From positions 38,605-102,604 of IMG/VR virus record IMGVR_UViG_3300031539_000008: a stretch of 64,000 nucleotides of DNA; one strand, 5' to 3'. The position numbers and the translations under genes were made by a program. Below the pieces are notes generated by a model. It was not told where the DNA came from and searched no databases. It saw only the letters and a program-made list of their open reading frames with translations. This DNA is from a virus. Below, piece by piece: positions 3,776 to 21,217 of the stretch (its first letter is position 1; the number at the start of each line of letters is the position of its first letter).

Positions 3776-3800
3776 GGTTCAGTGTCGCATGCTCAGGCGG

Positions 3801-5342
3801 CTAGGTCCCCCGCATGGCCTTGCGGAGAATGTCCCTGGCCACGGGGTTCTTCTTGGCCTTCTTCTTGGCGGTTTTGACGCCCAGATACCCACCAGCGATG
3901 GCGCCGACAGGGCCGAGCAGGAGGGCACCGGCACCGCCGCCAATCGCCGCACGCTCTGCGCGCGATGGATTCTTCTTGGTCCGCTTCTTGGCCTTCTTCG
4001 CCGGCTTCTTCTTGGCTACGCCAGAGCGCCCCTTCGCCTTGCGCAGTGAGGCGCGGATCAGATCGACGGACTTCTTGCTCACTCCGCCGATGTCCCATTT
4101 CTTGTTCTGTTTGAGGTAGCGCTCGATGTCCGCCTTGGTGAGCGTCTCCGCGGTCTTGCCCCATTCATCTGGCGCGTAGACGATCCCCTTGAAGTCGGAC
4201 ACGAAGGCCAAGGTTCCGTCTGGAAACTGGACCCACCACTCGACGGTCAGCTTCTCGCCCACATCCTCCGGGCCAAGGGCCAGCGTTGGCTTGCCAAACG
4301 TCTTGACCAAATCTCCGTAGCTGGCGGTGATTTTACCCTTTTGACTGGTCCCATCCAGCAGCTCAAAGTCCACTTCGGACTCGGCGAGGGTGCGGTGGGG
4401 TCCGATTGGCGCAGCGGCACGCACAGGCGCAGCTTCAGCGCCCTTCAGCGCGACATAGGCCGAGGATGCGCGCGACTTCACCGAGGCCGCACGCGACTTC
4501 ACGGTGTCCCAGAACGATGGGTTGTCCAACGCCTTGCGGAACTCGGGATTCGTCTTGACCTGGCAGGCCTCGCACCCGCAGATCTCTGGGACCAGCGTGA
4601 ACTTGTCCGGGTTGGCCTGCGGACCGAAGCTGCCCTCGCCGCCGTAGTCCTTGACCAGAAACTTGCGCAGCATCGCGAGCGTGCGTCCGTGGCCGGCTCG
4701 CACCGACGGGACCCGCTCCAGGATCATCACGCTGCCCAAGCAGGATCGGTAGCCGTAGTGGTCCACACACTTGCGCAGGATCTTCTTCTGCGTGTCGCGC
4801 GGCTTGGAGAGAAATCCCTTGCCGCCGAGCTTGCCGGGTCGGGTGATAGCCTTGGCCATCCACTTCGCCTTGGGAGGCGTACCCTTGTTCAGTCGTGGGT
4901 TCGTCTTCATTTCCTTGTTGGCCCACTCAGTGGCCCGACGCACCGCATCGCTGATGGATTTGGCCTGGTGGGTCAGCTCGCGCTGCCTGGTACGGCCTTC
5001 GTCCTGGACGACGGAGTAGTAGTTGCCCGGAACGAACGGATCAAGGCCGACCGTGAGAAATAGAGCACCCTTGGTGAGTGCGGCGGTCTCGTTGACGTGG
5101 TCGATGGCCTCCAGCATCCAGCCGTTGACGGGATTCTTCACGGCCCCTCGTCTCGCCTTGCTCCTGGCGCCCGGCGGGTAGTAGGTCACCGGACCGACCC
5201 CCATCATGTGTCCGCCGATGCCTGACGTGGGCACCAGCTCCCCAAGCAAGTAGCTCTCGGGCACCGGGCCCGGCGGCATCCTCTTGATCTTGTGCCCCTT
5301 GGGCACCGATGACTTCCGTTTGGGAGGATTTTTCTTGGCCAT
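3801..5342 (-). CDS. Modular basic protein, 8 xNP motifs, C-terminal ILRKAMRGT tag
   Basis: 513 aa; modules separated by KKNP/VKNP/KTNP/QANP/LDNP; ends KKNPVARDILRKAMRGT. Confidence 0.85.
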   Translation of the reverse strand: MAKKNPPKRKSSVPKGHKIKRMPPGPVPESYLLGELVPTSGIGGHMMGVGPVTYYPPGARSKARRGAVKNPVNGWMLEAIDHVNETAALTKGALFLTVGLDPFVPGNYYSVVQDEGRTRQRELTHQAKSISDAVRRATEWANKEMKTNPRLNKGTPPKAKWMAKAITRPGKLGGKGFLSKPRDTQKKILRKCVDHYGYRSCLGSVMILERVPSVRAGHGRTLAMLRKFLVKDYGGEGSFGPQANPDKFTLVPEICGCEACQVKTNPEFRKALDNPSFWDTVKSRAASVKSRASSAYVALKGAEAAPVRAAAPIGPHRTLAESEVDFELLDGTSQKGKITASYGDLVKTFGKPTLALGPEDVGEKLTVEWWVQFPDGTLAFVSDFKGIVYAPDEWGKTAETLTKADIERYLKQNKKWDIGGVSKKSVDLIRASLRKAKGRSGVAKKKPAKKAKKRTKKNPSRAERAAIGGGAGALLLGPVGAIAGGYLGVKTAKKKAKKNPVARDILRKAMRGT

Positions 5343-5345
5343 GAC

Positions 5346-5624
5346 TCAGCGTCTTCCGCGACCCTTGAGCGTGAGCCCGATGGCACCACGGCCCACGATG
5401 GCGTTGTTTTCTTGTGGCCAGCGGCCGGCGATCGGACCGATAATTCCTGCGCGCTCTGGGTTGCCCATGCCACGCGGAAGGACCTGCGCGCTCATGTGGC
5501 GCCCATCGCCCTGGAGCGGTCCGTAGCTCTTGTTGGGCTTGTAGGTGGAAACCAGGACGCTGCGTCCGTCCAGTCCGCCGATGCCAGCTCCCAGATCTGT
5601 GTCGCTCATTGATGGGTTGTGCAT
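5346..5624 (-). CDS. Small protein with MxNPSMSDTDLGAGIGGL leader
   Basis: Start re-placed at ATG 5624 by identity with the start of 6277..6720. Confidence 0.75.
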   Translation of the reverse strand: MHNPSMSDTDLGAGIGGLDGRSVLVSTYKPNKSYGPLQGDGRHMSAQVLPRGMGNPERAGIIGPIAGRWPQENNAIVGRGAIGLTLKGRGRR

Positions 5625-5656
5625 GCCCTTGGTCTCTTTCTCTCGTGCAGACTGTC

Positions 5657-5908
5657 CTAGAATTTCGAGCAAAAGGGCGGCAGGTAGTCTCCGAGGTAGT
5701 GATTGCAACATTCGCAATTGAACTGGTTGCCCTGGTCGTCGACAGCGCACCGCTTGTAGTCTCCCTCTCCCGAACACGAGCGTGTGCTACCTGGGCTAGA
5801 GGTGATACGACCGCGACCACGCCGACGCGCGGGCTTCTGGTAGGCGGCACGGGTGGAGGCCGCAGATCCGCGTTTGCTTCTACTGGATGCCATGGATGGG
5901 TTGTTCAT
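5657..5908 (-). CDS. Basic leader plus 6-Cys peptide
   Basis: MNNPSMASSRSKRGSAASTRAAYQKPARRRGR followed by a Cys-rich tail ending LGDYLPPFCSKF. Confidence 0.75.
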   Translation of the reverse strand: MNNPSMASSRSKRGSAASTRAAYQKPARRRGRGRITSSPGSTRSCSGEGDYKRCAVDDQGNQFNCECCNHYLGDYLPPFCSKF

Positions 5909-6270
5909 CTTCGTTTCCTTTCAGTCCCTGACTCGGTTGCTAAGTGAAAGCCGCGATGGAGGGCCATCACCTGGACGACCCTCTCCACCCACCTCACATA
6001 TTCACGCACCAAGGAGGCAGGTATCCGCCCAACACGCGAGTGCAACACTGACCCTTGCCAGAATGCCAGTAGTAATCACTCCCGTGACTCTTCTTGCAGT
6101 CTGCGTCCTTGCCCAGATTCGATCCTCCAGGGACGCCGAGTGTCGCTCGTCCGCGCCTGCGCGCGGGCTTCTGGTAGGCGGCACGGGTGGAGGCCGCAGA
6201 TCCTCGTTTGCTTCTACTGGATGCCATGGATGGGTTGTTCATCTTCGTTTCCTTTCAGTTCCTGACTCGG
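5826..6270. repeat. 111-bp direct repeat (5826-5936 and 6160-6270)
   Basis: 2 mismatches; covers RBS region and leader codons of two adjacent peptide genes. Confidence 0.92.
5994..6242 (-). CDS. Basic leader plus 4-Cys peptide
   Basis: Same 32-aa leader as 5657..5908, different core ending LGGYLPPWCVNM. Confidence 0.75.
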   Translation of the reverse strand: MNNPSMASSRSKRGSAASTRAAYQKPARRRGRATLGVPGGSNLGKDADCKKSHGSDYYWHSGKGQCCTRVLGGYLPPWCVNM

Positions 6271-6276
6271 GTTTGG

Positions 6277-6720
6277 TTATCGGAACACGTTTTTCACTTT
6301 ACACATGCCCTTGCAGACCTTGAGCTTGTACTCAGCTCCGCCACCATGCTTGGAGATGCAGTCCGCCTCGCAGCGGTTGGATCCGCCGCCACGGGGAGAC
6401 ATGCCACCGCGAGCGCTGACGGCCTTCAGTGTCCCTCGCGTGCGACGACGCCCCATGCCCAACGTCTTGGGTGCCTGGGTCGAGACCGCGCCACGGTAGT
6501 AGTCGTCACCACGCTCTCCGTCGACCTGGAAGTGGTTGCCGAACACGCGGTTGGCGTAGGAATTGCCATCCGTATTCACCGTGGCTCGAAAGTGACCTGG
6601 CTGAACCTGCTGGAGGTCCACCGAGAACTCGCTTCCGAACACGCGTTGGGCGTAGGAAGGTGCGCCCAGTCCGCCGATGCCAGCTCCCAGATCTGTGTCG
6701 CTCATTGATGGGTTGCGCAT
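6277..6720 (-). CDS. Leader-bearing protein with C-terminal twin CX3C motif
   Basis: MRNPSMSDTDLGAGIGGLGA...CEADC...CKGMC. Confidence 0.75.
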   Translation of the reverse strand: MRNPSMSDTDLGAGIGGLGAPSYAQRVFGSEFSVDLQQVQPGHFRATVNTDGNSYANRVFGNHFQVDGERGDDYYRGAVSTQAPKTLGMGRRRTRGTLKAVSARGGMSPRGGGSNRCEADCISKHGGGAEYKLKVCKGMCKVKNVFR

Positions 6721-6738
6721 GTCCTTGCTCTCCTTCTC

Positions 6739-7032
6739 TCAGCGATTCGTATGGTACGCGAGCCTACAGACTCCCTGGCAGCAGACCCACAGGCCCTTGT
6801 GGTCAACCCTTGCCTTACAGCCGCGCGGGATCCTGGGTCGACTCGCTCGCTTGGTCGCTCCCACGCCACGGCGACATCCAGAGGACACCGGGGTTCCGAC
6901 GGGTAGCATGGTCTGCGCGGCGCATCCACCGATGCCGGGAAACCACAGCCCCATCATCGCTGGCTGTATGGCCGCTAGGTTCTCCAGCGCCATGGTCTCG
7001 CTGTCAGCTTCGGCTCTGCACGGGTTGAACAT
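6739..7032 (-). CDS. Cys-rich basic protein with RGVGA motif
   Basis: MFNP start; RRGVGATKR; CKARVDHKGLWVCCQGVC. Confidence 0.65.
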   Translation of the reverse strand: MFNPCRAEADSETMALENLAAIQPAMMGLWFPGIGGCAAQTMLPVGTPVSSGCRRGVGATKRASRPRIPRGCKARVDHKGLWVCCQGVCRLAYHTNR

Positions 7033-7463
7033 CAGACGATCCGCACGATGGTTGCGCCGCGCACGGTCGGCACCTCGGTCGGGACAACTTGATTCTGGTC
7101 GGAGATGTCGACCTGGACCGCGCCAGGCGCAGCGGCCTCCAGGATGAAGCGATGGATGTACGGCGCGCCCGGCATGGCCTCCTCGGGCTCCTCGACCTCC
7201 TCGGTGACGATCAGCGTGGGGTCACCCTCGACGGCTTCCGTGAAGATCGTCCACTCGTAGGCCGTGCCGCTGGCATGAGGCAGCTCGATGGTCAGCACGT
7301 CTCCGAGGTTCAGCTCAACCTCGGTGGGCAGCTCGGACAGCTCGGTGATGAGTACCTGCTCCGGAGGCTGCCCGCCGTTTCCGTCCTTGACTTTGTCGCC
7401 CTTGCTCTTGGCGAGCAGAATGACGGCTCCGACGATGAGAACTGGTACAAGTGGAAATGGCAT
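7032..7463 (-). CDS. Membrane-anchored chagasin-like (I42) cysteine-protease inhibitor domain
   Basis: N-terminal TM; LNLGDVLTIELPHASGTAYEW and MPGAPYIHRFILEAAAPG resemble chagasin NPTTGYxW and GAGG-xF-A-PG loops (degenerate). Confidence 0.6.
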   Translation of the reverse strand: MPFPLVPVLIVGAVILLAKSKGDKVKDGNGGQPPEQVLITELSELPTEVELNLGDVLTIELPHASGTAYEWTIFTEAVEGDPTLIVTEEVEEPEEAMPGAPYIHRFILEAAAPGAVQVDISDQNQVVPTEVPTVRGATIVRIV

Positions 7464-7479
7464 CTGTGTCCTCGGTCTT

Positions 7480-7854
7480 TCACCCGCAGATCGGGTACCA
7501 GCTCGTGCCGCTTTGATGAGCGACGAGCGCGTAGTTTGCTTTGACTTCCAGGACCGTCCCTGGGTAGCTCAGTCCGCCGCAGAAGATCGTTCCGTTGGTG
7601 ATGTCGACGCAGCAGCTCGCGTAGGAGCCGTAGTGTCGGGGGTAGTAGCCGGCCCACCACGCCCACCAGTTGCCCCACCATCCGCTGCCCCCGCTGCCCC
7701 CGCTGCCACCTCGGCCGCGCCAAGGGTGGCCTGGGCGCCAACCTCCGCCGCCGCCGCCACCACCTCGACCTCGGCGGGCACGTCCTGCACGTCCTCCGCC
7801 GCGCTGTCCTACGCCGCGACGACTTCGATGAATGGTGAGTTTGACTTCTCCCAC
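7480..7854 (-). CDS. Gly/Arg/Trp-rich protein with Cys-containing C-terminal domain
   Basis: KLTIHRSRRGVGQ; GWWGNWWAWW; 4 Cys. Confidence 0.65.
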   Translation of the reverse strand: MGEVKLTIHRSRRGVGQRGGGRAGRARRGRGGGGGGGGWRPGHPWRGRGGSGGSGGSGWWGNWWAWWAGYYPRHYGSYASCCVDITNGTIFCGGLSYPGTVLEVKANYALVAHQSGTSWYPICG

Positions 7855-7859
7855 GTGAG

Positions 7860-8183
7860 CTACCTGTCGTAGATCGAGCGAAATTGGTCTCTGACCAACT
7901 GATTGACGAGCTGCTTCTTGGTCACGCGACCGTACCGCTTGAGCACAGGCTTTTTTTTTGCCTTCTTGCGGCGGCGCTTGGGGTTGTGTGACTCGATGGT
8001 GGCCAGCTTCTTGTAGTAGGCCTTGTCTTCGGTCAGGTGATCCATGGCGATCTCGACGGCCACCATGAAGTCGCTGGTGTGCTCCGTCTCAACCAGCGCT
8101 CCGCGAGCGAGTTCCACGGCGTTGAAGTCAGAGGGGGACTTCCCCACTGACAGACCGCCGGGTATGCGCTCGCGCCACGTCAC
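7860..8183 (-). CDS. DUF5661-like protein with basic tail
   Basis: ELARGALVETEHT...AVEIAMDHLTEDKAYYKKL then HNPKRRRKK; GTG start overlapping the upstream stop. Confidence 0.7.
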   Translation of the reverse strand: MTWRERIPGGLSVGKSPSDFNAVELARGALVETEHTSDFMVAVEIAMDHLTEDKAYYKKLATIESHNPKRRRKKAKKKPVLKRYGRVTKKQLVNQLVRDQFRSIYDR

Positions 8184-8863
8184 GGAATCCGTAGCTTTCG
8201 CTTCCTCTTCGGAGTCTTCTTCTTCGCCACCTTCTTCTTGGCCTTCTTCTTGGCCTTCTTCTTTTTTCCTCCGCGTGGAACCTGTGTCCACTCGCCGGAT
8301 GCACGCATCTCCACGTCCGATGGAGCGTACCGCTCGGTCCACTCGCCAGAGGAGATCATTTCGCGTGACTTCTTGTGCGCCGCCTTGTAGCCGGCGTCTG
8401 GATTGCTGGCCGTGCCAGAGAGCAGGACCGACTCGGTATGCGGGTCGATCAGGCCCCACTGGATCTGACTCTTGGCGCCGGGGTTGGGCACCCAGACATA
8501 TGCCAGCTCGGACGGGTTCTTGGTGAACCGCGTGAGACTGCCAGGCGTGCCCATCACGATCCCCTTCCAGTAACCGAGCAACGCATGCGAGCGCTTGTCT
8601 CCCATGCCCTTGGGCCCACAGCTCATGCGTGGGCTGGCCGCGTATCCGCGAGCCATCGCGGCGTTGGCCCCGGCCGAGCACGAGGTCAGATCGTACTTGC
8701 TGGCCCCCATTTTTCCCTTCGCGCTCCGGCTGCGAATCGGGACGTAGTAGGCACCGCGCGCCTCGCTCCAGCGGATGCGCGCCTGTCCTCCGGCGACGCC
8801 GCGGCCCTCCTTGCGAACTGCGGCAAGCGCCTTGGCGAAACTGACTTTCTGCTTTTTGGCCAT
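8180..8863 (-). CDS. Basic protein with xNP motifs and Lys-rich tail
   Basis: TKNP, VPNP, ASNP; KKKKAKKKAKKKVAKKK. Confidence 0.8.
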   Translation of the reverse strand: MAKKQKVSFAKALAAVRKEGRGVAGGQARIRWSEARGAYYVPIRSRSAKGKMGASKYDLTSCSAGANAAMARGYAASPRMSCGPKGMGDKRSHALLGYWKGIVMGTPGSLTRFTKNPSELAYVWVPNPGAKSQIQWGLIDPHTESVLLSGTASNPDAGYKAAHKKSREMISSGEWTERYAPSDVEMRASGEWTQVPRGGKKKKAKKKAKKKVAKKKTPKRKRKLRIP

Positions 8864-8871
8864 GACTGATC

Positions 8872-10236
8872 CTAGATCTTGCTGAACTTGCGCAGAATCG
8901 TCGCCTTCTCACGGGCACTCATCTGCTTGTTCGCCTTGGGTCCACTCGGCTTGACCGAGCGGGGGGTTTTGGCCGCGACAGCGCGAGCCTTGCGCGACTT
9001 CTTGCTCTTGAACTGCGCAAACAGCCCCTCGTGTCCCCGAATAGGCTCCAGGGGGTTGAGCTGTAGGTAACCACGCGAGGAGAGCTGCATGCGGCGACCC
9101 GAGGCCGTTGCGCCACGTCCCGCGCCGGAGCCTGGACCGTCGCCGGAGAACCGGCTCATGTTGCGACCGGCCACAGAGAGGCGATGAATCGCCTGCTCCA
9201 CCGTCATCTGCGGAGGCACGCCGGCGAACCCTGGGCGCGGCACGTTGCTCGGCCACGGCGCGACGCGCGTGGGCGCTCGCTTGGCCACCTTGCGCTTCGT
9301 GGCCTTGCGCTTGGCGACCTTCCGCTTTCCGGTCGTCTTCCGCTTTCCGGTCGTCTTCCGCTTGGCCACCTTCTTCTTGGCGGTCTTGCGCTTGGCGACC
9401 TTCTTCTTCGTGGCCTTCTTCTTCGTGGCCTTCTTCTTGGCTGGCTTGCGCTTGGCTGTGCTCAGCTTCTTGGAGCACAACTCCAGCCGCATGGAGCAGC
9501 CTTTCAGGGAGTCCTTGAGAGCCTCCTCCTGCTTCTTGGTCAGGTCTCCCCGATGCTTGGCCTTTTTCAGGCGCGTCTCCAGGGACTTGATGTGTGCCTT
9601 GAGCGAGGCGATTTCCTTGCTGTCCTTGCGCTTGGCGGCGGCGATGCGCTTGGTCTCCTGGCGTGCCGCATCGAATCCCTCCATCAGGTCGGACACCACG
9701 TCGGCTGAAACCATTTCTTCGGTCAACTTGGCCAGCGCAGCCTTGCCCTTGGTGATTTTGGCAATCTTGGCCTTGGACGGAATCGAACCCTGGGCCATTC
9801 CCCATTGTTTCTTCGTCAGACCGTGCTTGCGTACCTTGCTTGGCGTACCAGACGGGCTGGCGGGGCCGGCGGCAATCCCGACAGCTTTCTTCTTCTTCGA
9901 CCGCTTCTTCGTGGCCTTCTTCTTGGCCGGCTTGCTCTTGGTCGCTTTCTTCTTCGCAGTTTTCGCCACCTTTTTCTTGGCCACCTTTTTCTTGGCCTTT
10001 TTCTTGGCTGGCTTTTTCTTCGCCACCTTCTTCTTCTTGGTCGCCTTCTTCTTGGTCGCCTTCTTCTTGGTCGCCTTCTTCTTGGTCGCCTTCTTCTTGG
10101 TCGCCTTCTTCTTGGTCGCCTTCTTCTTCTTGGCGGCGTTGCGCTTTGGCGACTTGCGCTTCGCGGCACGCTTCTTCGCCTTCTTGGCGCGCTTCTTCTT
10201 TCGAGGATTGACGACGTTGACGGTGTAGGTGGCCAT
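8872..10236 (-). CDS. Histone H1/Hc2-like Lys-Ala-rich DNA-condensing protein
   Basis: (KKATK)n pentapeptide repeats (15-bp tandem near 10031-10125), central coiled coil, ends ATILRKFSKI. Confidence 0.85.
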   Translation of the reverse strand: MATYTVNVVNPRKKKRAKKAKKRAAKRKSPKRNAAKKKKATKKKATKKKATKKKATKKKATKKKATKKKKVAKKKPAKKKAKKKVAKKKVAKTAKKKATKSKPAKKKATKKRSKKKKAVGIAAGPASPSGTPSKVRKHGLTKKQWGMAQGSIPSKAKIAKITKGKAALAKLTEEMVSADVVSDLMEGFDAARQETKRIAAAKRKDSKEIASLKAHIKSLETRLKKAKHRGDLTKKQEEALKDSLKGCSMRLELCSKKLSTAKRKPAKKKATKKKATKKKVAKRKTAKKKVAKRKTTGKRKTTGKRKVAKRKATKRKVAKRAPTRVAPWPSNVPRPGFAGVPPQMTVEQAIHRLSVAGRNMSRFSGDGPGSGAGRGATASGRRMQLSSRGYLQLNPLEPIRGHEGLFAQFKSKKSRKARAVAAKTPRSVKPSGPKANKQMSAREKATILRKFSKI

Positions 10237-10287
10237 GGTGGTGTTCTCCTGAGTTTGGACGCCCTTCGCGGGCAGGCGAGGTGGGCG

Positions 10288-10407
10288 TCAGCGCCCTCGC
10301 GGAAGTTTCGTGATGCTGAGAGTACCTGCTAACAGGGAAAACGAAAAGAGAACCAACCCGACGTGCACGGCAGCGGTGGCAAGAGTGGGTTTCTTCGGTC
10401 CGTTCAT
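10288..10407 (-). CDS. Micro membrane protein (39 aa)
   Basis: Hand-translated MNGPKKPTLATAAVHVGLVLFSFSLLAGTLSITKLPRGR; ATGA overlap. Confidence 0.55.
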   Translation of the reverse strand: MNGPKKPTLATAAVHVGLVLFSFSLLAGTLSITKLPRGR

Positions 10408-10577
10408 CGCCCCTTGCCGAAGTAGAACGCGGTGCCGACGAGTGCAAGCATCGCGGCCCACAACGGGACCTTCCTGCCGTTCTCATCGTCGCCGGCACCC
10501 ACGCCACGGCGTCCGCGAGTACGGACGATACGACGAGGGAGACGCGGACGACGTGTCTTGTACTTGGGTCGTCTCAT
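10404..10577 (-). CDS. Basic leader, RGVGA, C-terminal TM (57 aa)
   Basis: MRRPKYKTRR...RGRRGVGAGDDENGRKVPLWAAMLALVGTAFYFGKGR. Confidence 0.7.
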   Translation of the reverse strand: MRRPKYKTRRPRLPRRIVRTRGRRGVGAGDDENGRKVPLWAAMLALVGTAFYFGKGR

Positions 10578-10741
10578 TTTACCGCCTTGATGATGCCGTA
10601 GGATGCGAGTCCTCCGAGGATCAGTGCGGCCCACACGGGTACGCACAGATCGGTGGTGTCACCGTTGGCCCCCATGCCGCGACGACCGCGAGACCTCGCC
10701 TTCTTCTTGCGCTTGTTGGTACGTGGACTGAACTTCGCCAT
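10574..10741 (-). CDS. Basic leader, RGMGA, C-terminal TM (55 aa); paralog of previous
   Basis: MAKFSPRTNKRKKKARSRGRRGMGANGDTTDLCVPVWAALILGGLASYGIIKAVK. Confidence 0.7.
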   Translation of the reverse strand: MAKFSPRTNKRKKKARSRGRRGMGANGDTTDLCVPVWAALILGGLASYGIIKAVK

Positions 10742-10752
10742 CTTCTTCTCCT

Positions 10753-11454
10753 TCAGATCCTCATCAGTCTGCGCAGCGTTTTCCGCTGCTCGGGTTTCAG
10801 CTTTTTCTTCGGCATGCGTATTCCGCCGCCGACCGATTCGCCCGCGCGTTGGGCGAGCCAGTTGCAAAGGCCGCCGGGGGATTCGACATCTGGACGTGCC
10901 TCCATGATGGCGAGACAGGCGCTCATACTGCCGCCTGGAATGTCGACAGGATTCCCCTCGTAGGGTCCGACGCCGTATCTGGCGGTAATCTTCTGAGCCA
11001 CACGAAGCAGGCTCCGAGCTTCCGTGACTCCGTTTTGTCCAAGTTTGCGGGCTGGCCCAGGGTCGTCTCCAGAGTGTTCCGCTTCGCCCACGGCCACCGC
11101 TGCGTATTTGATGGTGTCCAGGGCTCCGTTGAAAGCCACTGTGAAATCTTCCACCCGCTGAGCCTTCTCGAAAGCCTTGGCGGCGAGACGCATCGCCTTG
11201 CGGTACCGATCCGCGTGTTCACTGCGTCCTGGGTTGGCTAGCTGCGGATCGAACCCGTACCTCCGCATGATCGAGAGGTTGTTCTTCACCGCCCGCCAGT
11301 CGCTCGGCGTCTGCGACATGAACACCGAGCCCTTCCCGCCCGGGGACGATAGCTTCCAATGACCAGCCTTGCGCAGCGTGGCTGTCCATCCCTGCGCCTT
11401 GGCCTGCTCGATCACCTCGCGCATGCGCCTGGAAAGGTCTGACTTGCGGGACAT
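10753..11454 (-). CDS. Modular protein: HicA-like N-terminal domain, NP-delimited modules, C-terminal tag
   Basis: QGWTATLRKAGHWKLSSPGG...TPSDWRAVKN...RRYGF; LANP, EGNP; ends KTLRRLMRI. Confidence 0.75.
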   Translation of the reverse strand: MSRKSDLSRRMREVIEQAKAQGWTATLRKAGHWKLSSPGGKGSVFMSQTPSDWRAVKNNLSIMRRYGFDPQLANPGRSEHADRYRKAMRLAAKAFEKAQRVEDFTVAFNGALDTIKYAAVAVGEAEHSGDDPGPARKLGQNGVTEARSLLRVAQKITARYGVGPYEGNPVDIPGGSMSACLAIMEARPDVESPGGLCNWLAQRAGESVGGGIRMPKKKLKPEQRKTLRRLMRI

Positions 11455-11462
11455 GGATGGGG

Positions 11463-11798
11463 CTACCGAGCGAAGACCTCGGCGCGTGTGTGAAGTCGGC
11501 CTTCATCGAACTCGATGTGGTCGCGTTCAACCTGATCTACCAACTCGGCCGGGCAATACCTGCGGAACGGAAGCATCTCCCGTGCCGCGTGCTCTGCGAC
11601 GAGGTCTGGCGGAAAGCCAAGGTTCCGCAGCATCCGATGCTCACGGCGCAACTTGTGTTGTTGAGCGTTGGGCAGATACGGAAACAGCGAATCCTCCTCA
11701 AATGCGAAGTGGCATTCCAAACAGCACGCCACATCCATGCGGCAACTATTCATCTTGTCTTTGCAGGCTCCGCAACATGGTGGCTTGACTGGCATCAC
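11463..11798 (-). CDS. Hemerythrin/HHE-like small protein
   Basis: HFAFEEDSLFPYL, LRREH, HAARE pattern. Confidence 0.55.
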   Translation of the reverse strand: MMPVKPPCCGACKDKMNSCRMDVACCLECHFAFEEDSLFPYLPNAQQHKLRREHRMLRNLGFPPDLVAEHAAREMLPFRRYCPAELVDQVERDHIEFDEGRLHTRAEVFAR

Positions 11799-12523
11799 GT
11801 ACCTCTCATGGCCTTCTCCAGGATACCCCTGGTTTTCTTGCTACTCGTGCGATTCTTCCTGGATTTCGTCCTCTTCTTCGTCGGGTTCGGGATGAGACCC
11901 TCTGCCGCCAGTGAGGTAAAGTTACGTGGAGAGACCACCACGTGATCCAACACCGGGATTCCAGTCATCCTGCCGACCTTGACCATGCGTTGTGTCAGAT
12001 CGATGTCAGCCTCGCTTGGCGAGGAGTCGCCAGTGGGATGGTTGTGTGCGATGACCACGCTGTGAGCCTGCCGACGGATCGCCTCCCGAAACAACTCTCT
12101 GGGGTGCACCTCCACCGCCGACAGGCTGCCAATGGCGATTCCGAGCACGTCGATCACTTGCTGGCGTGCGTCGAGCAACACGACGACGAAATACTCCTGC
12201 GGCTTCTTGCCGATGACCCTACGCACGAGTTCTGCTACCTCGGATGGCTGCCTGACAGTCCCCGCGCGGTCCTGACAGGCCGCGTCACACAAGCCAGCAA
12301 CCGCAAATACAGCAATCACCTTCTTGGCCTGGGCAGTGGGAACCCCAAGATGGGTGAGCGCACTCATGCTCGCGTCGGAGAGTCCACGCCCGTCGGGGAA
12401 GTTCTCGGCCAGGATGGCTGCGCTTTTCTTGGTCAGCCCCAACTCACGCAGGCGGTCCACGAGCTTGCCTCGCTCCCGAATCTCCAGGAGTAGATCGTTG
12501 TGTATCGGTCGACCTCTCGGCAT
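11795..12523 (-). CDS. radC: RadC/JAB-domain protein with basic tail and C-terminal tag
   Basis: QEYFVVVLLD, VHPRELFREAI, AHNHPTGDSSPSEAD, LDHVVV; tail PNPTKKR...GILEKAMRGT. Confidence 0.9.
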   Translation of the reverse strand: MPRGRPIHNDLLLEIRERGKLVDRLRELGLTKKSAAILAENFPDGRGLSDASMSALTHLGVPTAQAKKVIAVFAVAGLCDAACQDRAGTVRQPSEVAELVRRVIGKKPQEYFVVVLLDARQQVIDVLGIAIGSLSAVEVHPRELFREAIRRQAHSVVIAHNHPTGDSSPSEADIDLTQRMVKVGRMTGIPVLDHVVVSPRNFTSLAAEGLIPNPTKKRTKSRKNRTSSKKTRGILEKAMRGT

Positions 12524-12936
12524 CAGGTTCCTCGCATCGCTTTACGCAGGATCGCGCGGGCGTCTGGATTATTCTTCGCATTTTTCTTGGCGGTCTTTTT
12601 GGCCTTACTGGGCTCTTGGGCGATACGCCCTTCCGCCAGCTCGATCATGCTATCCTTCTCACCGGCCCGCTCATCCAGACGATCCTGGTCGCGCGCGGCC
12701 GTGTACGCCTGGATGTAGAAGCTGTACTCGACCTTGTAGATGTGGCCGTTGACCTTCGTGTAGAGGCCGGGGATGACTCGGTCGTTCAGGCTGTCCCACA
12801 GCTCATGCCACTGGTAGTCGTCTGGGCCGTAGTCTGGCAGCGCCTGCTGTTGCTTGCGGGGGTCTGGGATTCTGGCGCTGCGTCGGTCGAACGACGACAT
12901 CTCCCGATACGGCGATGTGACAACCGGAGCCATCAC
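12523..12936 (-). CDS. Hypothetical protein with C-terminal tag
   Basis: Ends KKNAKNNPDARAILRKAMRGT. Confidence 0.8.
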   Translation of the reverse strand: MMAPVVTSPYREMSSFDRRSARIPDPRKQQQALPDYGPDDYQWHELWDSLNDRVIPGLYTKVNGHIYKVEYSFYIQAYTAARDQDRLDERAGEKDSMIELAEGRIAQEPSKAKKTAKKNAKNNPDARAILRKAMRGT

Positions 12937-13727
12937 GTCCCTCGCATCGCCTTGCGCAAGATCGTCTTGGCGTCGGGGTTCTTCTTGGCCACCTTCTTCT
13001 TCGCCTTCTTCTTCGCTTCTTTCCTCGCTGGCTTCCCCCAGTTGAGTTCATCCACCAGCGAGATGGCCTTGTCGAAAGCGTCGGCACCACGAAAAGTCTC
13101 GTAGATCTTCGTCTTGTCGCGCACCGCGTATACGCCATGCGGGAGCACGTCAATCCGTACCATCGGGGATGCAGCCTTGGCCCTGGGGTTCTTCACCCTC
13201 TTCTTGGCGCGCTTGCGCGAGGCTTTGCTCGCGGGGTTGCTGCGCAGTTTCAGCATGTCCTCCACCTCGGAGGATATGGAGCTGGCGCCGTCCATGATGG
13301 AGTAATCGTCGGCGTGGTGTCCCTCGTTCCAAGCGGCGTGCGCATCTTCCAGGGCTAGGATGGCCAGGACTTTGCGATGTGACCCGTCTGTGGTTTCACG
13401 GGCCTTTTCAAGCGTCTTTTCAGCTTGCTTGAGGTGAGCCTTCGCCAGCCTGGCATGGGTCTTCTTGGCGGGGTTCGATGTCTTTTTGCGCGGGTTCTCG
13501 TACCCCTCGCCCTCCACGCCCCCGGCCTCGCCCCACCCAGACTCGCCGCCCGGCCACTCGTCCGAGAGCTTGGCCCCGAGCCTGGATGCCTTGCGGTCGC
13601 CGCCCTTGGGCTCGAATCCTCCACCCCGTCGCCACTCCCAGTACGCCTCCAGGTGTTCGCCGGCGGCGTGGTAGTCCTTGCGCTTGAGGGCGCTGGTGGC
13701 CATGTCGAGTGCTGCCTGCGGGTCCAT
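12933..13727 (-). CDS. Modular basic protein, 5 xNP motifs, C-terminal tag
   Basis: Start MDPQAAL (TGATG overlap); ends KKNPDAKTILRKAMRGT. Confidence 0.8.
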   Translation of the reverse strand: MDPQAALDMATSALKRKDYHAAGEHLEAYWEWRRGGGFEPKGGDRKASRLGAKLSDEWPGGESGWGEAGGVEGEGYENPRKKTSNPAKKTHARLAKAHLKQAEKTLEKARETTDGSHRKVLAILALEDAHAAWNEGHHADDYSIMDGASSISSEVEDMLKLRSNPASKASRKRAKKRVKNPRAKAASPMVRIDVLPHGVYAVRDKTKIYETFRGADAFDKAISLVDELNWGKPARKEAKKKAKKKVAKKNPDAKTILRKAMRGT

Positions 13728-14287
13728 CAGTACACCAGTCCTCTCTCCGTCACGGTTAGCCGACCGCCGCTGATGGCGATGGCCTTGGGCGGGCTTCCAG
13801 GCGACATCGCGATGCGCACGTTCTTGCCCAGGGTGTGGATGTAGTCGTCCGTCATTCCGTCCGACTTCCATTTGGAGCTGCGGTACACGATGTGAACCGC
13901 GCGACCGTACGGCTTGAGCTGGTAGTCTTGGAGCTTGAGTTCGCCCATCTGCACGGGGTCACGCGCCGCCCATCGACGAAATAGCTTGGCCGACTTCTCC
14001 GCGCCGGCCGCCTTGAACAGCTCCTGGTCCGGACCGAGATGGCCGACCCATCGCACGTGCTTCCCAGGGAAGATCAGCAACGTCTTCAGCGTCGGGCTCC
14101 AATAGAGGTTGGGGCCCTCCCCCGTGAACTTGTGGACCTCTTCCTGCCCGTCGCTGTCGCGCTCGACCTTGATCTCCAGGGCAGTGCCAAGCAGTGCCAC
14201 GTCGCCTGGATTCGGCAGGCGTGACGGCTTAGGGCCGGGGTTCCCCGCAAGTAGCAGGCACGGTAGGCAGGGGTTTTGGCGTGGCAT
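13727..14287 (-). CDS. Putative virion protein with three N-terminal xNP motifs
   Basis: RQNP, AGNP, LPNP then a globular domain (YRSSKW...YIH...GGRLTVTERGL). Confidence 0.75.
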   Translation of the reverse strand: MPRQNPCLPCLLLAGNPGPKPSRLPNPGDVALLGTALEIKVERDSDGQEEVHKFTGEGPNLYWSPTLKTLLIFPGKHVRWVGHLGPDQELFKAAGAEKSAKLFRRWAARDPVQMGELKLQDYQLKPYGRAVHIVYRSSKWKSDGMTDDYIHTLGKNVRIAMSPGSPPKAIAISGGRLTVTERGLVY

Positions 14288-14496
14288 CTTCGTTTCTCAG
14301 CGTCGTCGGGATCCCTTTTTCGGCCGCGACCGCGGCCCACCGGAATACCGTCAGCCAATCCCCGGGCCGCATGACGCGTCCCCCACTCCCCTGAAGTCGT
14401 GGAAGGACTGTGGTGCGATTTGTGGTGCGATTTGTAGCGTGGAGACGGTCGCCGCGTTGGCGCGGTCCACATCGGCTTTGCTTGGTTGAGTAGCCA

Positions 14497-15060
14497 TCAG
14501 GGGCGGCTTGTATCCTCATATTGTACGGGGAGCTGCGGGTCGCCGGAGCCAGGACCTGGCCCGGTGTGCTTCGTGCACACCCAGATGCCTTTGACGTACG
14601 CGAACTGCTCGCAGTCACCTGCGTCTATAGGCGTTGATCTTCCGGCTGATAGGGAACGCGAACGAGAGCGCGAACGAGAGCGCCGACGCCCAACCCCGAT
14701 CCTTGGGCCCGGTGCTGTTGGTCCATGGGGGAACAGGCATCCGGTAATCATGGACCCTTGGCACTCAGCCAAATCGTGAGCACTCAGCTTGCTCGCCATC
14801 CACTGTTTCTTACACCAGGCTAGACCACTGGAGATGCACTTGCCGCGGGGGCGGCTAGGCGTGGATCCTCCGCGTGAGCCCGCCCTCCCCTTGCCCCGAG
14901 CGCCGACTCCACGGTGCAGAGTCATCTTGACCGGTGCCCCCATGCCTCGCGGCACGATCGGGATGCGGACGTGTCCATCTTGGATGTGAGAACGAGCCGC
15001 GTCGGTGTCCCATGCTCCGAGGCCGACTTGACGCTGATACAGAGTGGGGTTGTTGGCCAT
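14497..15060 (-). CDS. Basic Cys-containing protein with several G[LMV]GA motifs
   Basis: MANNP; GLGA, GMGA, GVGA; RS repeat; KGIWVC. Confidence 0.7.
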   Translation of the reverse strand: MANNPTLYQRQVGLGAWDTDAARSHIQDGHVRIPIVPRGMGAPVKMTLHRGVGARGKGRAGSRGGSTPSRPRGKCISSGLAWCKKQWMASKLSAHDLAECQGSMITGCLFPHGPTAPGPRIGVGRRRSRSRSRSRSLSAGRSTPIDAGDCEQFAYVKGIWVCTKHTGPGPGSGDPQLPVQYEDTSRP

Positions 15061-15061
15061 C

Positions 15062-15493
15062 TCAGTACCTCCCCGTCGCCCGGTACTGACGCTTGGCGGT
15101 CAGACTGATGGGCCGGCGGTTCTTCCCACCTAGCCGGCGGGTGCCGGCTCCCTTGAAGGTGAGAGACATGCCAGATGCAGGCTCGTACCACCCGCCCCGG
15201 CTCGCGCCCAGGCCCTCGGGTTCGTCCGTGTACTGGTTGTTGTTGGCGTCCACGCCGCCGTCGTCTGGATAGCCAACGGTGTCGTTGTAGTCATCCATGC
15301 CGCCAGATGGCTGGCCATCCGGAGCGCAGTCCACGTCTGGCTGATGCGGGTAGGGCGTCTTCCCGCAGTGGCAGTAGTGGTGGTGGTGGTGGTGAACATC
15401 CTGGTGTTCATGCTGCGGCGCACAGCCGGTGTGGCAGCCAGCCACCCCTTGCTGTTTCCCTCGCTGCTTTCGATAGCTTCGTCGTTGAGCCAT
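15062..15493 (-). CDS. His/Cys-rich protein
   Basis: HEHQDVHHHHHHYCHC; EGLGAS. Confidence 0.65.
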   Translation of the reverse strand: MAQRRSYRKQRGKQQGVAGCHTGCAPQHEHQDVHHHHHHYCHCGKTPYPHQPDVDCAPDGQPSGGMDDYNDTVGYPDDGGVDANNNQYTDEPEGLGASRGGWYEPASGMSLTFKGAGTRRLGGKNRRPISLTAKRQYRATGRY

Positions 15494-15498
15494 TTTTC

Positions 15499-16272
15499 TT
15501 ACCTCCGTTGTTTTCCGCGCAAAGTCAGGCCGCGCTTACCGATTCCGCCCTGGTCGCATCCCGCATCGATCCAGTAGGGCATGCTCCTGGTGGGGCATCC
15601 AGCAAATGGCTCGGCGTAGAACTGCGCGCTCTGCCCGATCCAGTACGGCTGTTGCCCGATAGGATAGGGCACCCGTCGCTGTCGCCTTTTTCGTCCTCGA
15701 CGAAATCCATAATACAGGCCGACCGGATTGGTGGTGGGTGCGCAGCCGATGTCCCCGGGATTTGGCCCGATGTACGGGTTGCATGCCGCGCCATACCCTG
15801 GTCCTGGAGGCACCGGTGGCCGAAGAGGCCGGCGACGCGCGGGAATGGGAGTGGCAGCGGGCGGTGCAGCGGAGGTCTGTCCGACGCCAGGGCTCGTGCA
15901 GTCGCCTGTGCAGTCGCCTCCGCACTCACACTCGTGTCCAGATGCGCAGGACTCACAGCAGTACCCTTCCCACCATGGCTGGTGATGGTCCACCGCAGGG
16001 GGGCAGTCTGAGTGACCGCCGCATGGCCGCTCAGGCAGACAGATGGGAAGCGCGCCGCGAATCGAGTAGGGCGTGTAGATTCCACTCTCCATCGCCAAAT
16101 AGCTGCGCTGGAGACCCGGATGCTGGACAGGCTGGCAACCGGGCCGATACGCCGGATAGGCGGGCATTTCGGTATCTCCGCTCCAGGTCCCGTGAGGCGC
16201 GCCCATTCCGCGGCGGTAGGTCAGGGGGATTCTGCGCATCGTCTTGTTCTTCCACTTGTCTCCACAGGGCAT
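15499..16272 (-). CDS. Cys/Pro-rich protein
   Basis: RRGMGAP; CCESCASGHECECGGDC; ends LTLRGKQRR. Confidence 0.7.
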   Translation of the reverse strand: MPCGDKWKNKTMRRIPLTYRRGMGAPHGTWSGDTEMPAYPAYRPGCQPVQHPGLQRSYLAMESGIYTPYSIRGALPICLPERPCGGHSDCPPAVDHHQPWWEGYCCESCASGHECECGGDCTGDCTSPGVGQTSAAPPAATPIPARRRPLRPPVPPGPGYGAACNPYIGPNPGDIGCAPTTNPVGLYYGFRRGRKRRQRRVPYPIGQQPYWIGQSAQFYAEPFAGCPTRSMPYWIDAGCDQGGIGKRGLTLRGKQRR

Positions 16273-16276
16273 TTTT

Positions 16277-16615
16277 CTACCTCTTCGGCTTCGCGAGCGG
16301 GCGATCGTTGTAACAAACCCACCGATAGCCGTTGAAGTGTGGCGTGAACCCGGGGAGGCAGGTCACCCCCCTGGTGGTAGCGGACGCGGCGATGCGGCGA
16401 CTGGGAGGCGCTGGCAGTCTGGCGCCCACGCCGTACTGCGTTGGGTGCATGAACACCTGCGGGCGGTAGGGGACTGCGTAGTCGATCACGGTATCGGTCC
16501 ACGGGTCGTAGCTCGCACCGACGCCGCGGGTGCTCCCTCCGCCGAGCAGACGCTTGGCAGACTCGACTTCGCGCAGCATGCGACCGCGCCCTTTGTCACC
16601 GCTTGGGTTGTTCAT
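16277..16615 (-). CDS. Small protein with MNNPS start and two GVGA motifs
   Basis: RGVGAS, YGVGAR, C...GYRWVC. Confidence 0.7.
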   Translation of the reverse strand: MNNPSGDKGRGRMLREVESAKRLLGGGSTRGVGASYDPWTDTVIDYAVPYRPQVFMHPTQYGVGARLPAPPSRRIAASATTRGVTCLPGFTPHFNGYRWVCYNDRPLAKPKR

Positions 16616-16657
16616 GGGAACTCCTGGTCCCGATGCTACCGCGGCGGAGCTGTACCC

Positions 16658-17614
16658 TCAAATGTTCATCATGCGACGCATGAACGAGCCACGCGTTGCC
16701 TTCTTCGGGGCGCTCGCAGCTCGTTCCTTCGCGGTCTTCTCTACGAGCGCACACGCGGATGCAAGCGCACGCCGGGCTCCCCACGCTGTGTAGCTCCCAA
16801 GAGCCGTCTCGTCTGGGCCGATCACCGTCGCCATCGCCATGCCGTCATGCTCTGCGATGTCTCCGCCTTCGTACGCGCCAAGCGGTTGCACGTCGATGGT
16901 GTAGCTGCGGCAGGCGAACAAGCCGCCGTTGCCCTTCACGGTACGCATGCGCACGCCAGCGGGAACTGGTGGCTGCGGTGGAACACGTTTGCGGCTGCGG
17001 TGTTTCGCCTGCTCGTGCATCAGGTCGATCACTGCCAGCGCCTCCAGGTGGGGGAACGGCTGGTCCGAGGACCATTCTGCCAACACGGCACCGGGTCCGT
17101 CTTTGATCTGGCGCGCAATCTGGACGTTTGGCCCCTGCACAAGTATATGACGGCCTCTGTACTTGTAGATGGTTCCGTTTTCGTCCTTCTGGACGGTGAG
17201 CGGAGTCTTGTTCTCGCGGAATCCTCCGTAGAGCAGGTCGTCTTCGGCGGCCTCCCCTGGATTCTTTTGGACCTTCTCCCAGAACCCCCACTCGATTGTT
17301 CCGTCGGGCATCTTTCGCCCGCTGAAGTAGTGATGTGCCGGAGCCGTCTTTTGCAGCCCGGAGGTGATGTGGTCGAAAAGGGTATCAGCCTGGCGCTGCC
17401 AATCGCGCGGAGCCTCCTCGTACCACTCATCCCCGTCTCCACGCGCATCGGCCTCGGTGATGTAGAGATAGACGCTGCCAAGCTGTCCGCGTAGGGCACG
17501 ATCTGCGTCCGGGTCAAGATGGCGCAGCGTCCCCATCAGCTCGACGATCGCCTCACCCCGAGGCCCGTCTGGCATCTGGATGAACACGGGTCCGGGCTTG
17601 GCTCGCTTACGCAT
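16658..17614 (-). CDS. Modular protein with tag-like C-terminus
   Basis: QKNP boundary; ends KKATRGSFMRRMMNI. Confidence 0.75.
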   Translation of the reverse strand: MRKRAKPGPVFIQMPDGPRGEAIVELMGTLRHLDPDADRALRGQLGSVYLYITEADARGDGDEWYEEAPRDWQRQADTLFDHITSGLQKTAPAHHYFSGRKMPDGTIEWGFWEKVQKNPGEAAEDDLLYGGFRENKTPLTVQKDENGTIYKYRGRHILVQGPNVQIARQIKDGPGAVLAEWSSDQPFPHLEALAVIDLMHEQAKHRSRKRVPPQPPVPAGVRMRTVKGNGGLFACRSYTIDVQPLGAYEGGDIAEHDGMAMATVIGPDETALGSYTAWGARRALASACALVEKTAKERAASAPKKATRGSFMRRMMNI

Positions 17615-17615
17615 T

Positions 17616-18317
17616 TCACATCCTGGTCAGAACACTGGGCAGGCGTCCACGGGATTTGGCGGCTTTCTTGCCGCCGTTGACCTGTGGCTTGGGAGCATAG
17701 TAGCGCTGTTCCCACTGCTTTGCAGCGCGCTTGGCCGCACTTATGGCGGTCTGCTCGCTGCGGTAGGGCTTGGAGGACGTGGCGGCGAGCTTGCTCTTTC
17801 GGTTGTCTTGCACCCAGAAGTGCCAGACGGTTCCGTCTCCGTCGACAGTGATGGAGAAGTCTTGCTCCGCCTCTGGATTGCGTCGTCTTCCAAGTCCACG
17901 CACAGACCAGTAGATCGGGTATCGGGCTCGTGAGTCGGCCCTGATGCGTCCACAGACTCGTGCAGCCCGGACAGAATCTCCGTGCCGCTTCGTTTGGTCG
18001 TCCACACACTGGTACCAGGGATAGGTGCCTGGCCCGCGTCGAGCCTTGTCTACCTTGCGACGTGCGGGGATGGTTTTCTGCTTCCTGGCCAGCTCGCCCG
18101 CAGCGCGCTGCAAGGTCTCTGACATGGCGAAGTCACCCGCGTTTTCCGCCTCGTAGATCAGGTCCGAAAGCCGGTCATGGTAGGCGACATAGCTCTCACC
18201 TTTCTTTCTGCGCGGGACGGCGGGACCACGTGGAATCAGCGCGGTTATTCGGCGCCTGGCAACCTTCTTGGTCGCCTTCTTTCTGCCCTTGCTAACCTTT
18301 TTCTTGGATCGGGCCAC
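17616..18317 (-). CDS. Modular basic protein
   Basis: GTG start MARSKKKV; YPWYQCVDDQ...AARVCGRI module; RRNP; ends LPSVLTRM. Confidence 0.7.
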   Translation of the reverse strand: MARSKKKVSKGRKKATKKVARRRITALIPRGPAVPRRKKGESYVAYHDRLSDLIYEAENAGDFAMSETLQRAAGELARKQKTIPARRKVDKARRGPGTYPWYQCVDDQTKRHGDSVRAARVCGRIRADSRARYPIYWSVRGLGRRRNPEAEQDFSITVDGDGTVWHFWVQDNRKSKLAATSSKPYRSEQTAISAAKRAAKQWEQRYYAPKPQVNGGKKAAKSRGRLPSVLTRM

Positions 18318-18318
18318 G

Positions 18319-18942
18319 CTACCCCTTCGGCCACTGTGATGGTGGAAGGGATAACTTCTCCTCCGCATCGAGAGACGCCCAGTTGGTACGATCGAACTCC
18401 TTGGCCATCTTGCTCAGCCAGGCGATGGCCGAACTCAGCGTCTTGGAGTCTCTTCGGGCCAGATATTCTCCCTCCGCCAAGATGATCGCCTCGTAGTGCT
18501 TGCTTCCCCACCGGTAGACGATCAGCTTGAACGGCCCCGTTGAGGCAGCGTAGTCCTGCTCGTAGACGTTCTCTGGGCTACCGTGGCGATCGGCCAAGCT
18601 ACGGTAGTAGTCGTACGCGGCCCCCTGAACCCCCTTGGACCCAGTGCCCCACATCAGGCGGTGGATGGATTCCTCGGTCTCCGTGCCTTCTGGATCGAGA
18701 TGCTCGTTGCCTTGCACAAGGTCGTCAGCCCACTCGGTGTTGCCGACGTACAGGTAGTACCTACGATCCCAGGGGAACAGATGCTCTCCGGGCCCGGAAG
18801 TTTGCGTCGGCTCTCCGCGCTCGATCTGGTACTTCCAGTCTGGGAAGCCAGGCACCCTGAATGAGCTGCGGTCCTTCTTCTGGCGAAGACCAATCGCCAT
18901 CGCACCAACGATGGCCATGCCCCAGATCAGTGGAAGTGGCAT
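18319..18942 (-). CDS. N-terminally anchored membrane protein
   Basis: MPLPLIWGMAIVGAMAIGLRQKK. Confidence 0.75.
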   Translation of the reverse strand: MPLPLIWGMAIVGAMAIGLRQKKDRSSFRVPGFPDWKYQIERGEPTQTSGPGEHLFPWDRRYYLYVGNTEWADDLVQGNEHLDPEGTETEESIHRLMWGTGSKGVQGAAYDYYRSLADRHGSPENVYEQDYAASTGPFKLIVYRWGSKHYEAIILAEGEYLARRDSKTLSSAIAWLSKMAKEFDRTNWASLDAEEKLSLPPSQWPKG

Positions 18943-19298: not shown

Positions 19299-19307
19299 GG
19301 TCCTCGC

Positions 19308-21210: not shown

Positions 21211-21217
21211 CGGTGAG

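Follow-up and report, generated by a model that had tools for sequence, protein, structure and literature searches.

What does a recurrent Asn-Pro dipeptide (NP) do in a block of virus genes, and what reads it? The block, 25 curated minus-strand genes at 1340–18368, lies in the last 64 kb (64,000 nucleotides; hereafter the window, numbered from its first letter) of a 102.6-kb linear virus record from IMG/VR (IMGVR_UViG_3300031539_000008; completeness estimated at 71% by CheckV), and its genes are late genes of a large, uncultured virus that infects bacteria. We found that NP is a lineage-specific boundary mark, kept by selection at the junctions of protein modules, basic linkers and a C-terminal tag. 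The pattern itself is solid and the uncertainty concerns what reads it. The likeliest of the readings weighed here, which we hold tentatively, is that NP is a processing site whose use would free domains and basic peptides. Proteins are named below by the left-hand window coordinate of their gene (Table 1).

Asn-Pro is in excess in one block of genes

The first-pass annotation of this DNA had listed NP counts for individual proteins of the block and suggested a comparison with the genes at 36–64 kb. The counts (8, 5, 3, 3, 2, 2 and singles) were all reproduced. Expected numbers were obtained by shuffling within each protein, which keeps that protein's own composition. The block contains 41 NP against 8.2 expected, a total that 0 of 2000 shuffles reached, whereas the 36–64 kb genes contain 11 against 9.8 (p 0.39); the genes at 18.3–36 kb contain 11 against 8.8. 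The enrichment thus survives correction for composition (5-fold, z 11). Among all 400 dipeptides NP is the top outlier in the block (z 11.4), followed by KK, which reflects lysine tracts, and one third of the Asn residues in the block have Pro as the next residue. The excess is 6.1-fold in 13 proteins that carry the C-terminal tag (35 against 5.7) and 4-fold in the rest of the block, mostly small Cys-rich proteins (18 against 4.4); a second group of tagged genes upstream (contig 8651–14051) contains 14 against 2.2. The other 124 genes of the contig are close to expectation (37 against 32.6, 1.1-fold). A maturation-protease motif would be expected to be commoner in late or virion-type proteins than in those encoded elsewhere in the genome, and this was found here.

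The signal acts on the protein, is directional and is specific for Asn. The reverse pair PN occurs 8 times against 8.2 expected (0.97-fold), QP is at 1.1-fold, and SP, TP and DP are at expectation in the block proteins. The nucleotide pattern AAYCC occurs 40 times in frame 0 and 7 and 6 times in the other frames, and NP sites draw on both codons for Asn and all four for Pro. This frame specificity and mixture of codons place the signal at the level of the protein. A DNA motif or a rare-codon pause found no support, since the codons chosen at NP differ only marginally from those of other Asn and Pro residues (p 0.07 and 0.09). That the excess is an artefact of composition, a DNA motif, mistaken gene calls or a handful of recent gene copies can be regarded as effectively refuted. 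Some sites are indeed paralogous (three tails and the gene pairs 5657/5994 and 5346/6277), and several small open reading frames in this region of 62% guanine plus cytosine (GC) are uncertain calls. However, about 35 sites are left once the three tails and the two small-protein pairs are collapsed, the same excess is present in 153 proteins clustered at 50% identity, and neither the shuffles, the reading-frame distribution nor the PN count fits an artefact.

NP lies between modules

The first-pass annotation had also placed single NPs at the junction of domain and tail, and suggested that NP serves to release small domains from basic tagged carriers. In two proteins the junction can be located to within 2–3 residues of the end of a Pfam match. 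The NP of the RadC-like protein lies three residues past the end of the match (residue 210) and is followed by a basic stretch and ...GILEKAMRGT; the match in the DUF5661 protein ends near residues 61–62, and KRRRKKAKKK and a tail follow the NP. The single NPs in the 12523 (KNNP), 16658 and 17616 proteins were also confirmed. In the 1340 protein, NP43 stands just ahead of the first helix-turn-helix (HTH) domain and is kept in 3 of 3 homologues, and NP759 precedes a basic tail ending ...LSRMMRA.

A helical module that had been noticed after an NP in both the 10753 and 12933 proteins proved to be common to the two (BLASTP E 6e-4), with the alignment starting one residue before NP in both. A third copy is present in a tagged sigma-70 protein encoded upstream on the contig, and its alignments start at NP; an iterated hidden Markov model of this NPxxxxH module did not grow past 4 members. 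The tagged sigma-70 protein consists, in order, of an N-terminal region, NP39, a helical module, NP124, the sigma regions, NP393 and the tail. The three members of the 12933 family are near-identical over their N-terminal 77 residues up to an invariant EGYE-NP and are unrelated beyond it. RadC, DUF5661, sigma-70 and the 12933 family bear out the picture of NP-bracketed domains on basic tagged carriers. Distances between successive NPs are bimodal (<30 and 60–150 amino acids), which fits an arrangement of domain, NP, linker, NP, domain.

Two AlphaFold (AF2) models, one of them of low confidence, were available for the 3801 and 12933 proteins, and 13 of 13 NPs fall outside folded units. The 3801 model is poor overall (predicted local distance difference test, pLDDT, 52); its confident parts put all eight NPs outside folded segments. 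NP70 opens the first beta/alpha unit, NP148 comes directly after the last helix of that unit, and NP244 follows a conserved core (about residues 160–240) that is itself without NP. NP458 and NP499 flank a glycine-zipper hydrophobic module, and the protein ends in the tail KKNPVARDILRKAMRGT. The 12933 model (pLDDT 69) comprises three confident units and a terminal helix, split by low-confidence, NP-bounded basic linkers; all five NPs are in linkers or at helix starts. Searched by fold, the two models matched only generic helical structures (Z<=7; Foldseek E>=0.02). NP is thus not buried in folded domains in these models, nor in the conserved core of the 153 relatives described below, which is nearly free of it. 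Two results that the first-pass annotation had named as refuting its idea, loss of the enrichment on composition correction and burial of NP inside folded domains, were thus looked for and did not occur. Sites in exposed segments between domains are again what would be expected of a maturation-protease motif.

The excess is shared by metagenomic relatives

An exhaustive profile search retrieved 240 cluster representatives that have the core domain of the 3801 protein, and counts were made on the best 150 plus earlier hits (153), clustered at 50% identity. The core (window 4600–4900, GKLGGKGF..YGYRSCLGSVMILER) matches no Pfam family. These 153 representatives contain 388 NP against 69.3 expected. 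The excess is 3.8–6.5-fold in all four quartiles of amino acid composition, and SP and TP are at or below expectation. Within the relatives the GKLGG..YGYRSCLGS core is nearly NP-free (one case), a peak follows right after the core, and sites are scattered before it. The NP excess is therefore lineage-wide. Flanking genes in metagenome loci have it as well (38 against 8.3 in L034, 20 against 2.7 in L040, 18 against 3.3 in L045 and 20 against 4.8 in L018). Locus L034 also encodes, at 1–1252, three tandem 40-residue units that start with NPSPEN and end with LRLG, followed by a Cys/Gly/His-rich C-terminus.

An alignment of 12 members of the 3801 family has NP columns that are invariant where covered (9 of 9, 12 of 12 and 7 of 7), and at a fourth column Asn is present in 12 of 12. 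The flanks and the module content vary, and modules inserted in relatives carry their own NPs. NP was found at alignment gap boundaries 56 times against 49 in controls. Homologues of the 8180, 8872, 10753, 1340 and 17616 proteins keep most NP positions at 30–55% identity, with some turnover: two of the three NPs of the 8180 protein and both of the 8872 protein are kept in the homologues at locus L012, and that of the 17616 protein is kept in 3 of 5. The 8872 protein has (KKKAT)n / (AKKKV)n tracts at each end of a coiled-coil-like centre, and similar proteins are encoded at L045 and L034.

The core domain also occurs in small Arg/Ser-tailed proteins of low-GC contigs binned as giant viruses (L005/L007/L021, around 9944–10354). 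An alignment-based scan of virus contigs picked up nothing but low-GC giant-virus-like contigs that have the core domain alone, and in these NP is close to expectation (14 against 12.3). A scan of genome contigs gave one match, in a metagenome-assembled genome, and a single-protein scan of IMG/VR virus contigs gave no close relative.

NP borders a basic C-terminal tag

About 13 otherwise unrelated proteins share a basic stretch followed by an amphipathic tail of the type ..[IL]LRKAMRGT, LRRLMRI or MRRMMNI. The same tails and a second type, ..LKNKLLR, are found on the metagenome relatives (25 of 153 representatives). Eight of the 13 tagged proteins have an NP 11–30 residues from the C-terminus, bordering the tag. 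Three ILRKAMRGT tails have 73% nucleotide identity, NP included, so part of the NP excess reflects common descent with shuffled cassettes. The tail codons at 12523–12540 and 12933–12950 (..ATG CGA GGA ACC TGA) contain a GAGGA Shine-Dalgarno site, and the stop codon of the tail overlaps the start codon of the gene that follows (11795 after 12523, and 12523 after 12933); because both lie within the tail codons, the RGT* ending may be constrained in part by translational coupling.

The association with the tag raises the question of whether NP is simply bound. It could be a short, multivalent linear motif that docks a packaging or assembly factor, the second function that the first-pass annotation had offered besides cleavage, or a minor-groove DNA turn of the SPKK type (N-P-basic-basic) in proteins coating the packaged genome. 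NP density is correlated with the presence of the C-terminal tag and of K-rich stretches, and Lys or Arg is present within two residues before NP at 43% of 398 sites in the relatives. In the block about 8 of 41 sites are followed by at least two basic residues (NPRKKK, NPKRRR, NPTKKR). We nevertheless consider binding unlikely: most sites have no basic residues after NP, the preferences around NP (Lys at −1/−2 about 2.5-fold, Ser or Asp at +1 about 3-fold) are very weak for docking, and no candidate partner was seen.

Cutting or capping

Under the processing reading the chain would be cut at or beside Asn-Pro, either by a virus-encoded enzyme, for which the 31838 protein is the candidate, or by a cyclisation, triggered by assembly, in which the Asn side chain attacks its own carbonyl. 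Cutting would free functional domains, release short basic peptides from tagged carriers and trim the M-x-N leaders of small proteins. The tagged late proteins (RadC, sigma-70, the HTH protein, the H1-like protein and small domains) are probably loaded into the virion; we infer this location, cleavage at NP and the agent of cleavage from sequence.

Several features favour processing. The pair is directional and uses Asn only, not Ser, Thr, Asp or Gln. It is invariant while its flanks drift, it borders both the tag and functional domains, and it is specific to one virus lineage and one functional gene class. NP is also found a few residues from many N-termini, where there is nothing to insulate. 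The first-pass observation that seven small proteins start M-x(1-2)-NP (5346–5624, 5657, 5994, 6277, 6739, 14497 and 16277) held, and 5 of these 7 starts have a Shine-Dalgarno-like GGAG/AGGA 6–13 nucleotides upstream. With these seven included, NP lies within the first 10 residues of 15 of 153 proteins against 2.2 expected. Finally, Asn-Pro is chemically special and has precedents for self-cleavage: an Asn before Pro cannot deamidate via the backbone nitrogen, and only attack on its own carbonyl is possible.

Other observations weigh against cutting. Most endopeptidases disfavour Pro at P1'. The Asn-Pro autocleavages known so far are single sites in a folded catalytic context, whereas here one protein can have up to 8 NPs, in linkers and with hardly any consensus around them. 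G[MV]GA could be an equally good or better candidate than NP for the site of the 31838 protein. In the models a helix begins exactly at Pro for 4 of the 13 NPs (NP265, NP274 and NP499 of the 3801 protein, where P266, P275 and P500 are each the first helical residue, and NP85 of the 12933 protein, where it is P86), and two residues after Pro for a fifth (NP250, just before the tail helix). At variable NP columns, moreover, Pro is retained more often than Asn, which is replaced by Lys, Arg, Gly or Met, and the tail NP is replaced by NA in 4 of 12 homologues, which fits a structural role at least as well as cutting.

These last points bear on the alternative that NP is structural punctuation and is not cut. 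An Asx-Pro turn would cap the start of a helix, with Asn as N-cap and Pro as the first helical residue, and would stop the preceding helix. It would thereby insulate small modules and the amphipathic helix of the terminal tag from linkers that are rich in lysine and bind DNA, and would have spread with shuffled modules and tags. The position of NP148 directly after a helix end, the residues rich in Ser, Asp and Glu after NP, as at helix N-termini, and the common descent of the three tails all agree with this, and the membrane-anchored structural proteins of this virus start M-x-P with varied residues before Pro. A known Asx-Pro turn is that of the NANP repeats in the Plasmodium circumsporozoite protein; here too the dipeptide would set local structure, but unlike those repeats NP is not tandem, lies at the junctions of many unrelated modules, and is not interchanged with Asp-, Ser- or Thr-Pro. 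Capping alone fails to explain the exclusive use of Asn because the pairs SP, TP and DP show no enrichment, or a depletion, both in these proteins and in the 153 relatives. Nor are the substitutions at NP columns Ser, Thr or Asp. NP also occurs 3–10 residues from many N-termini and before non-helical basic stretches, where capping would insulate nothing, and an invariant exact dipeptide amid diverging flanks is unusual for linkers, which are normally only biased in composition. On balance we regard structural punctuation as the main rival of processing, though less likely.

Processing could also take a more far-reaching form, which we put forward as a doubtful possibility: a lineage-wide code in which tagged precursors would be cut between Asn and Pro after being loaded into the particle, either by an enzyme dedicated to the task or through cyclisation of Asn on assembly. 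Effector domains (sigma factor, RadC, small helical bundles) would be set free, along with membrane-active glycine-zipper peptides and short basic peptides that condense DNA, in a bacterial-virus counterpart of adenovirus core-protein maturation with a new site specificity.

Comparison with known systems

Recurrent short cleavage motifs in virion-internal proteins (T4, phiKZ-like phages, adenovirus) are already known, as is self-cleavage at Asn-Pro. Maturation proteases cut after L/I-x-E (T4 gp21), after S/A/G-x-E (phiKZ and SPN3US) or at (M/I/L)XGX-G in adenovirus pVII, pMu and pVI. NP resembles these motifs in being very short and in occurring several times per protein at the boundaries of unrelated late proteins, and cutting would release small basic peptides as in adenovirus Mu. 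It differs in having Pro on the prime side and in that the protease is a candidate and the motif is known from sequence. The tag is C-terminal and basic, unlike the N-terminal capsid targeting sequence of T4. As a short terminal peptide common to unrelated proteins, the ILRKAMRGT-type tag is comparable to encapsulin cargo peptides and to the T4 sequence, but it is basic and of different sequence, and loading here is putative.

Autoproteolysis at Asn-Pro occurs in reovirus mu1 and aquareovirus VP5 (Asn42-Pro43), and in RsgI and FlhB/EscU (NPTH). A cut at NP in the present proteins would share with these cases the scissile dipeptide and the Asn chemistry, and two of these precedents are virus particle proteins; self-cleavage is known in reovirus capsid proteins and in the anti-sigma factor RsgI (PMC10328401). 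Autoproteolytic domains, however, have one site in a catalysing fold with conserved neighbours, in contrast to the many sites in predicted linkers found here. NPTH was found at 0 of 41 sites in the region and 1 of 399 in the relatives, and the modelled sites are predicted to lie outside the kind of folded domain that surrounds an autoproteolytic NP.

The picornavirus 2A sequence NPGP is likewise an Asn-Pro at a polyprotein junction. D.E.NPGP had no match, and NPGP was found at 1 of 41 sites in the region and 3 of 399 in the relatives. Skipping at 2A is a property of eukaryotic ribosomes, whereas the genes studied here have Shine-Dalgarno sites. Sites of the PPEP-1 or sortase B type (xNP-P(V/I)P, or NP(Q/K)T(N/G) with a membrane anchor after it) were also not found: NPP accounts for 1 of 41 and 20 of 399 sites, and NP[QK]T[NG] for 0. 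To our knowledge, bare Asn-Pro has not been described as a boundary mark present many times per protein across a virus lineage. If it is a cut site, it would imply a new protease or asparagine-lyase specificity and a 'cargo polyprotein' system built from modules, in a group of viruses none of which has been cultured, and the mature products of hundreds of metagenomic proteins would become predictable. If its role is structural only, it would be a rare instance in which one exact dipeptide delimits domains in unrelated modules, which would aid the parsing of unannotatable proteins into domains and offer a natural minimal domain insulator.

A candidate enzyme and other possible signals

The only candidate enzyme for NP processing that we saw is the 31838 protein, whose Cys/His/Asp pattern is of the kind found in transglutaminase-like or papain-fold enzymes. 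Neighbours in the ESM Atlas (score 0.93–0.95) carry Transglut_core/Peptidase_C93 domains, and the protein had no Pfam hit at E<=1. A transglutaminase-like protein in the structural block, together with the co-occurrence of NP and lysine tracts, brings up a further, speculative explanation, that Asn in NP acts as the acyl donor when isopeptide cross-links are made to Lys in lysine-rich segments, formed spontaneously or by the transglutaminase-like enzyme, with Pro protecting Asn from deamidation until linking. The specificity for Asn, which holds against both Gln and Asp, would agree with this. We think it very improbable: transglutaminases use Gln, not Asn, and the known Asn-Lys links of HK97 capsids and Gram-positive pilins need a buried catalytic Glu or Asp, not linkers.

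An RG[VM]GA / GMGA motif recurs in small Cys-rich proteins (5346–7854, 10404–10577 and 14497–16615) and at 33251–34018, where a beta-rich capsid-like protein has GMGA close to its N-terminus (..RLQGMGANN..). It is a candidate second processing signal, separate from NP.

The gene at 7032–7463 encodes a membrane-anchored 143-amino acid protein that scores 33.8 bits against the chagasin-type family of cysteine-peptidase inhibitors (I42), above the Pfam threshold. Its sequence is also similar to the Ig-like repeats of phage tail proteins, and the stretch corresponding to the canonical NPTTG loop reads HASGTAYEW. The idea that NP had been purged from this loop was dropped because the domain is equally like the Ig-like tail repeats.

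Genomic context

Nearly all genes at 1.3–54 kb are on the minus strand, and the NP-rich block forms the downstream end of this long array, where it follows a block of proteins that look structural and are membrane-anchored. The DNA is about 62% GC. GGAG/AGGA at normal spacing precedes many gene starts, which identifies the host as a Shine-Dalgarno-using bacterium. The window also encodes replication and recombination functions (DnaB-like helicase, AAA ATPase, YqaJ, RecT and RadC), and the upstream part of the contig encodes a tyrosine integrase and a sigma-70 factor; the presence of the integrase on the contig with the sigma-70 protein suggests a temperate life style.

Table 1. Features of the NP-rich block and related loci (window positions unless a contig or locus is named)
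Position	Strand	Feature	NP sites (residues) and remarks
1340–3775	−	811-aa (amino acid) tagged protein; N-terminal HTH/sigma region-4-like domains	43, 759
3801–5342	−	513-aa tagged modular protein	5, 70, 148, 244, 265, 274, 458, 499; examples at 5130–5135, 4608–4613, 3843–3848
5346–7032	−	Five small M-x-NP proteins; Cys-rich C-termini, RG[VM]G motifs	Starts: 5346–5624 MHNPS; 5657–5908 and 5994–6242 MNNPS; 6277–6720 MRNPS; 6739–7032 MFNPC
7860–8171	−	DUF5661 protein	63–64 (7980–7985), SHNP
8180–8863	−	227-aa protein; K-rich C-terminus	116, 127, 154
8872–10236	−	454-aa histone-H1-like protein; (KKKAT)n repeats	10, 394
10753–11454	−	233-aa tagged protein	74, 168; helical module NPGRSEHADR... begins at NP74
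11795–12523	−	RadC-like JAB protein	213–214 (11882–11887), IPNP
12523–12936	−	137-aa tagged protein	123 (12565–12570), KNNP, immediately before DARAILRKAMRGT
12933–13727	−	264-aa tagged protein P0154	78, 85, 164, 180, 250
13727–14287	−	186-aa protein	Three within first 27 residues (MPRQNP..AGNPGP..LPNPG)
14497–15060	−	Small protein	Starts MANNP
15499–16272	−	Small protein	Three at 165–182
16277–16615	−	Small protein	Starts MNNPS
16658–17614	−	Tagged protein	118, between N- and C-terminal halves
17616–18368	−	Tagged protein	164, between halves
31838–32374	−	178-aa candidate maturation enzyme	Transglutaminase-like Cys/His/Asp core (..GTCADMSAY.., ..AYHAYV.., ..YDPS..)
L049 12822–14051; L050 4528–5859		Sigma-70 family protein	NP-bounded modules and basic tail
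3801–3845, 12523–12567, 12933–12977; also 11795–11830, 10753, 16658, 1340; contig (L049) 8651–14051		C-terminal tag	

Searches against Pfam and PHROGs returned almost nothing for the NP-rich proteins, and megablast of the region against GenBank phages gave no match. No terminase, portal or HK97-type capsid protein was recognised among about 50 proteins scanned on this incomplete contig. Hydrophobic N-terminal anchors that begin M-x-P and are followed by KKK form a run at 18319–29216 (18319, 25505, 26026, 26975, 27844 and 28626), with a further example at 7032. This run of anchored proteins suggests a membrane-containing particle.

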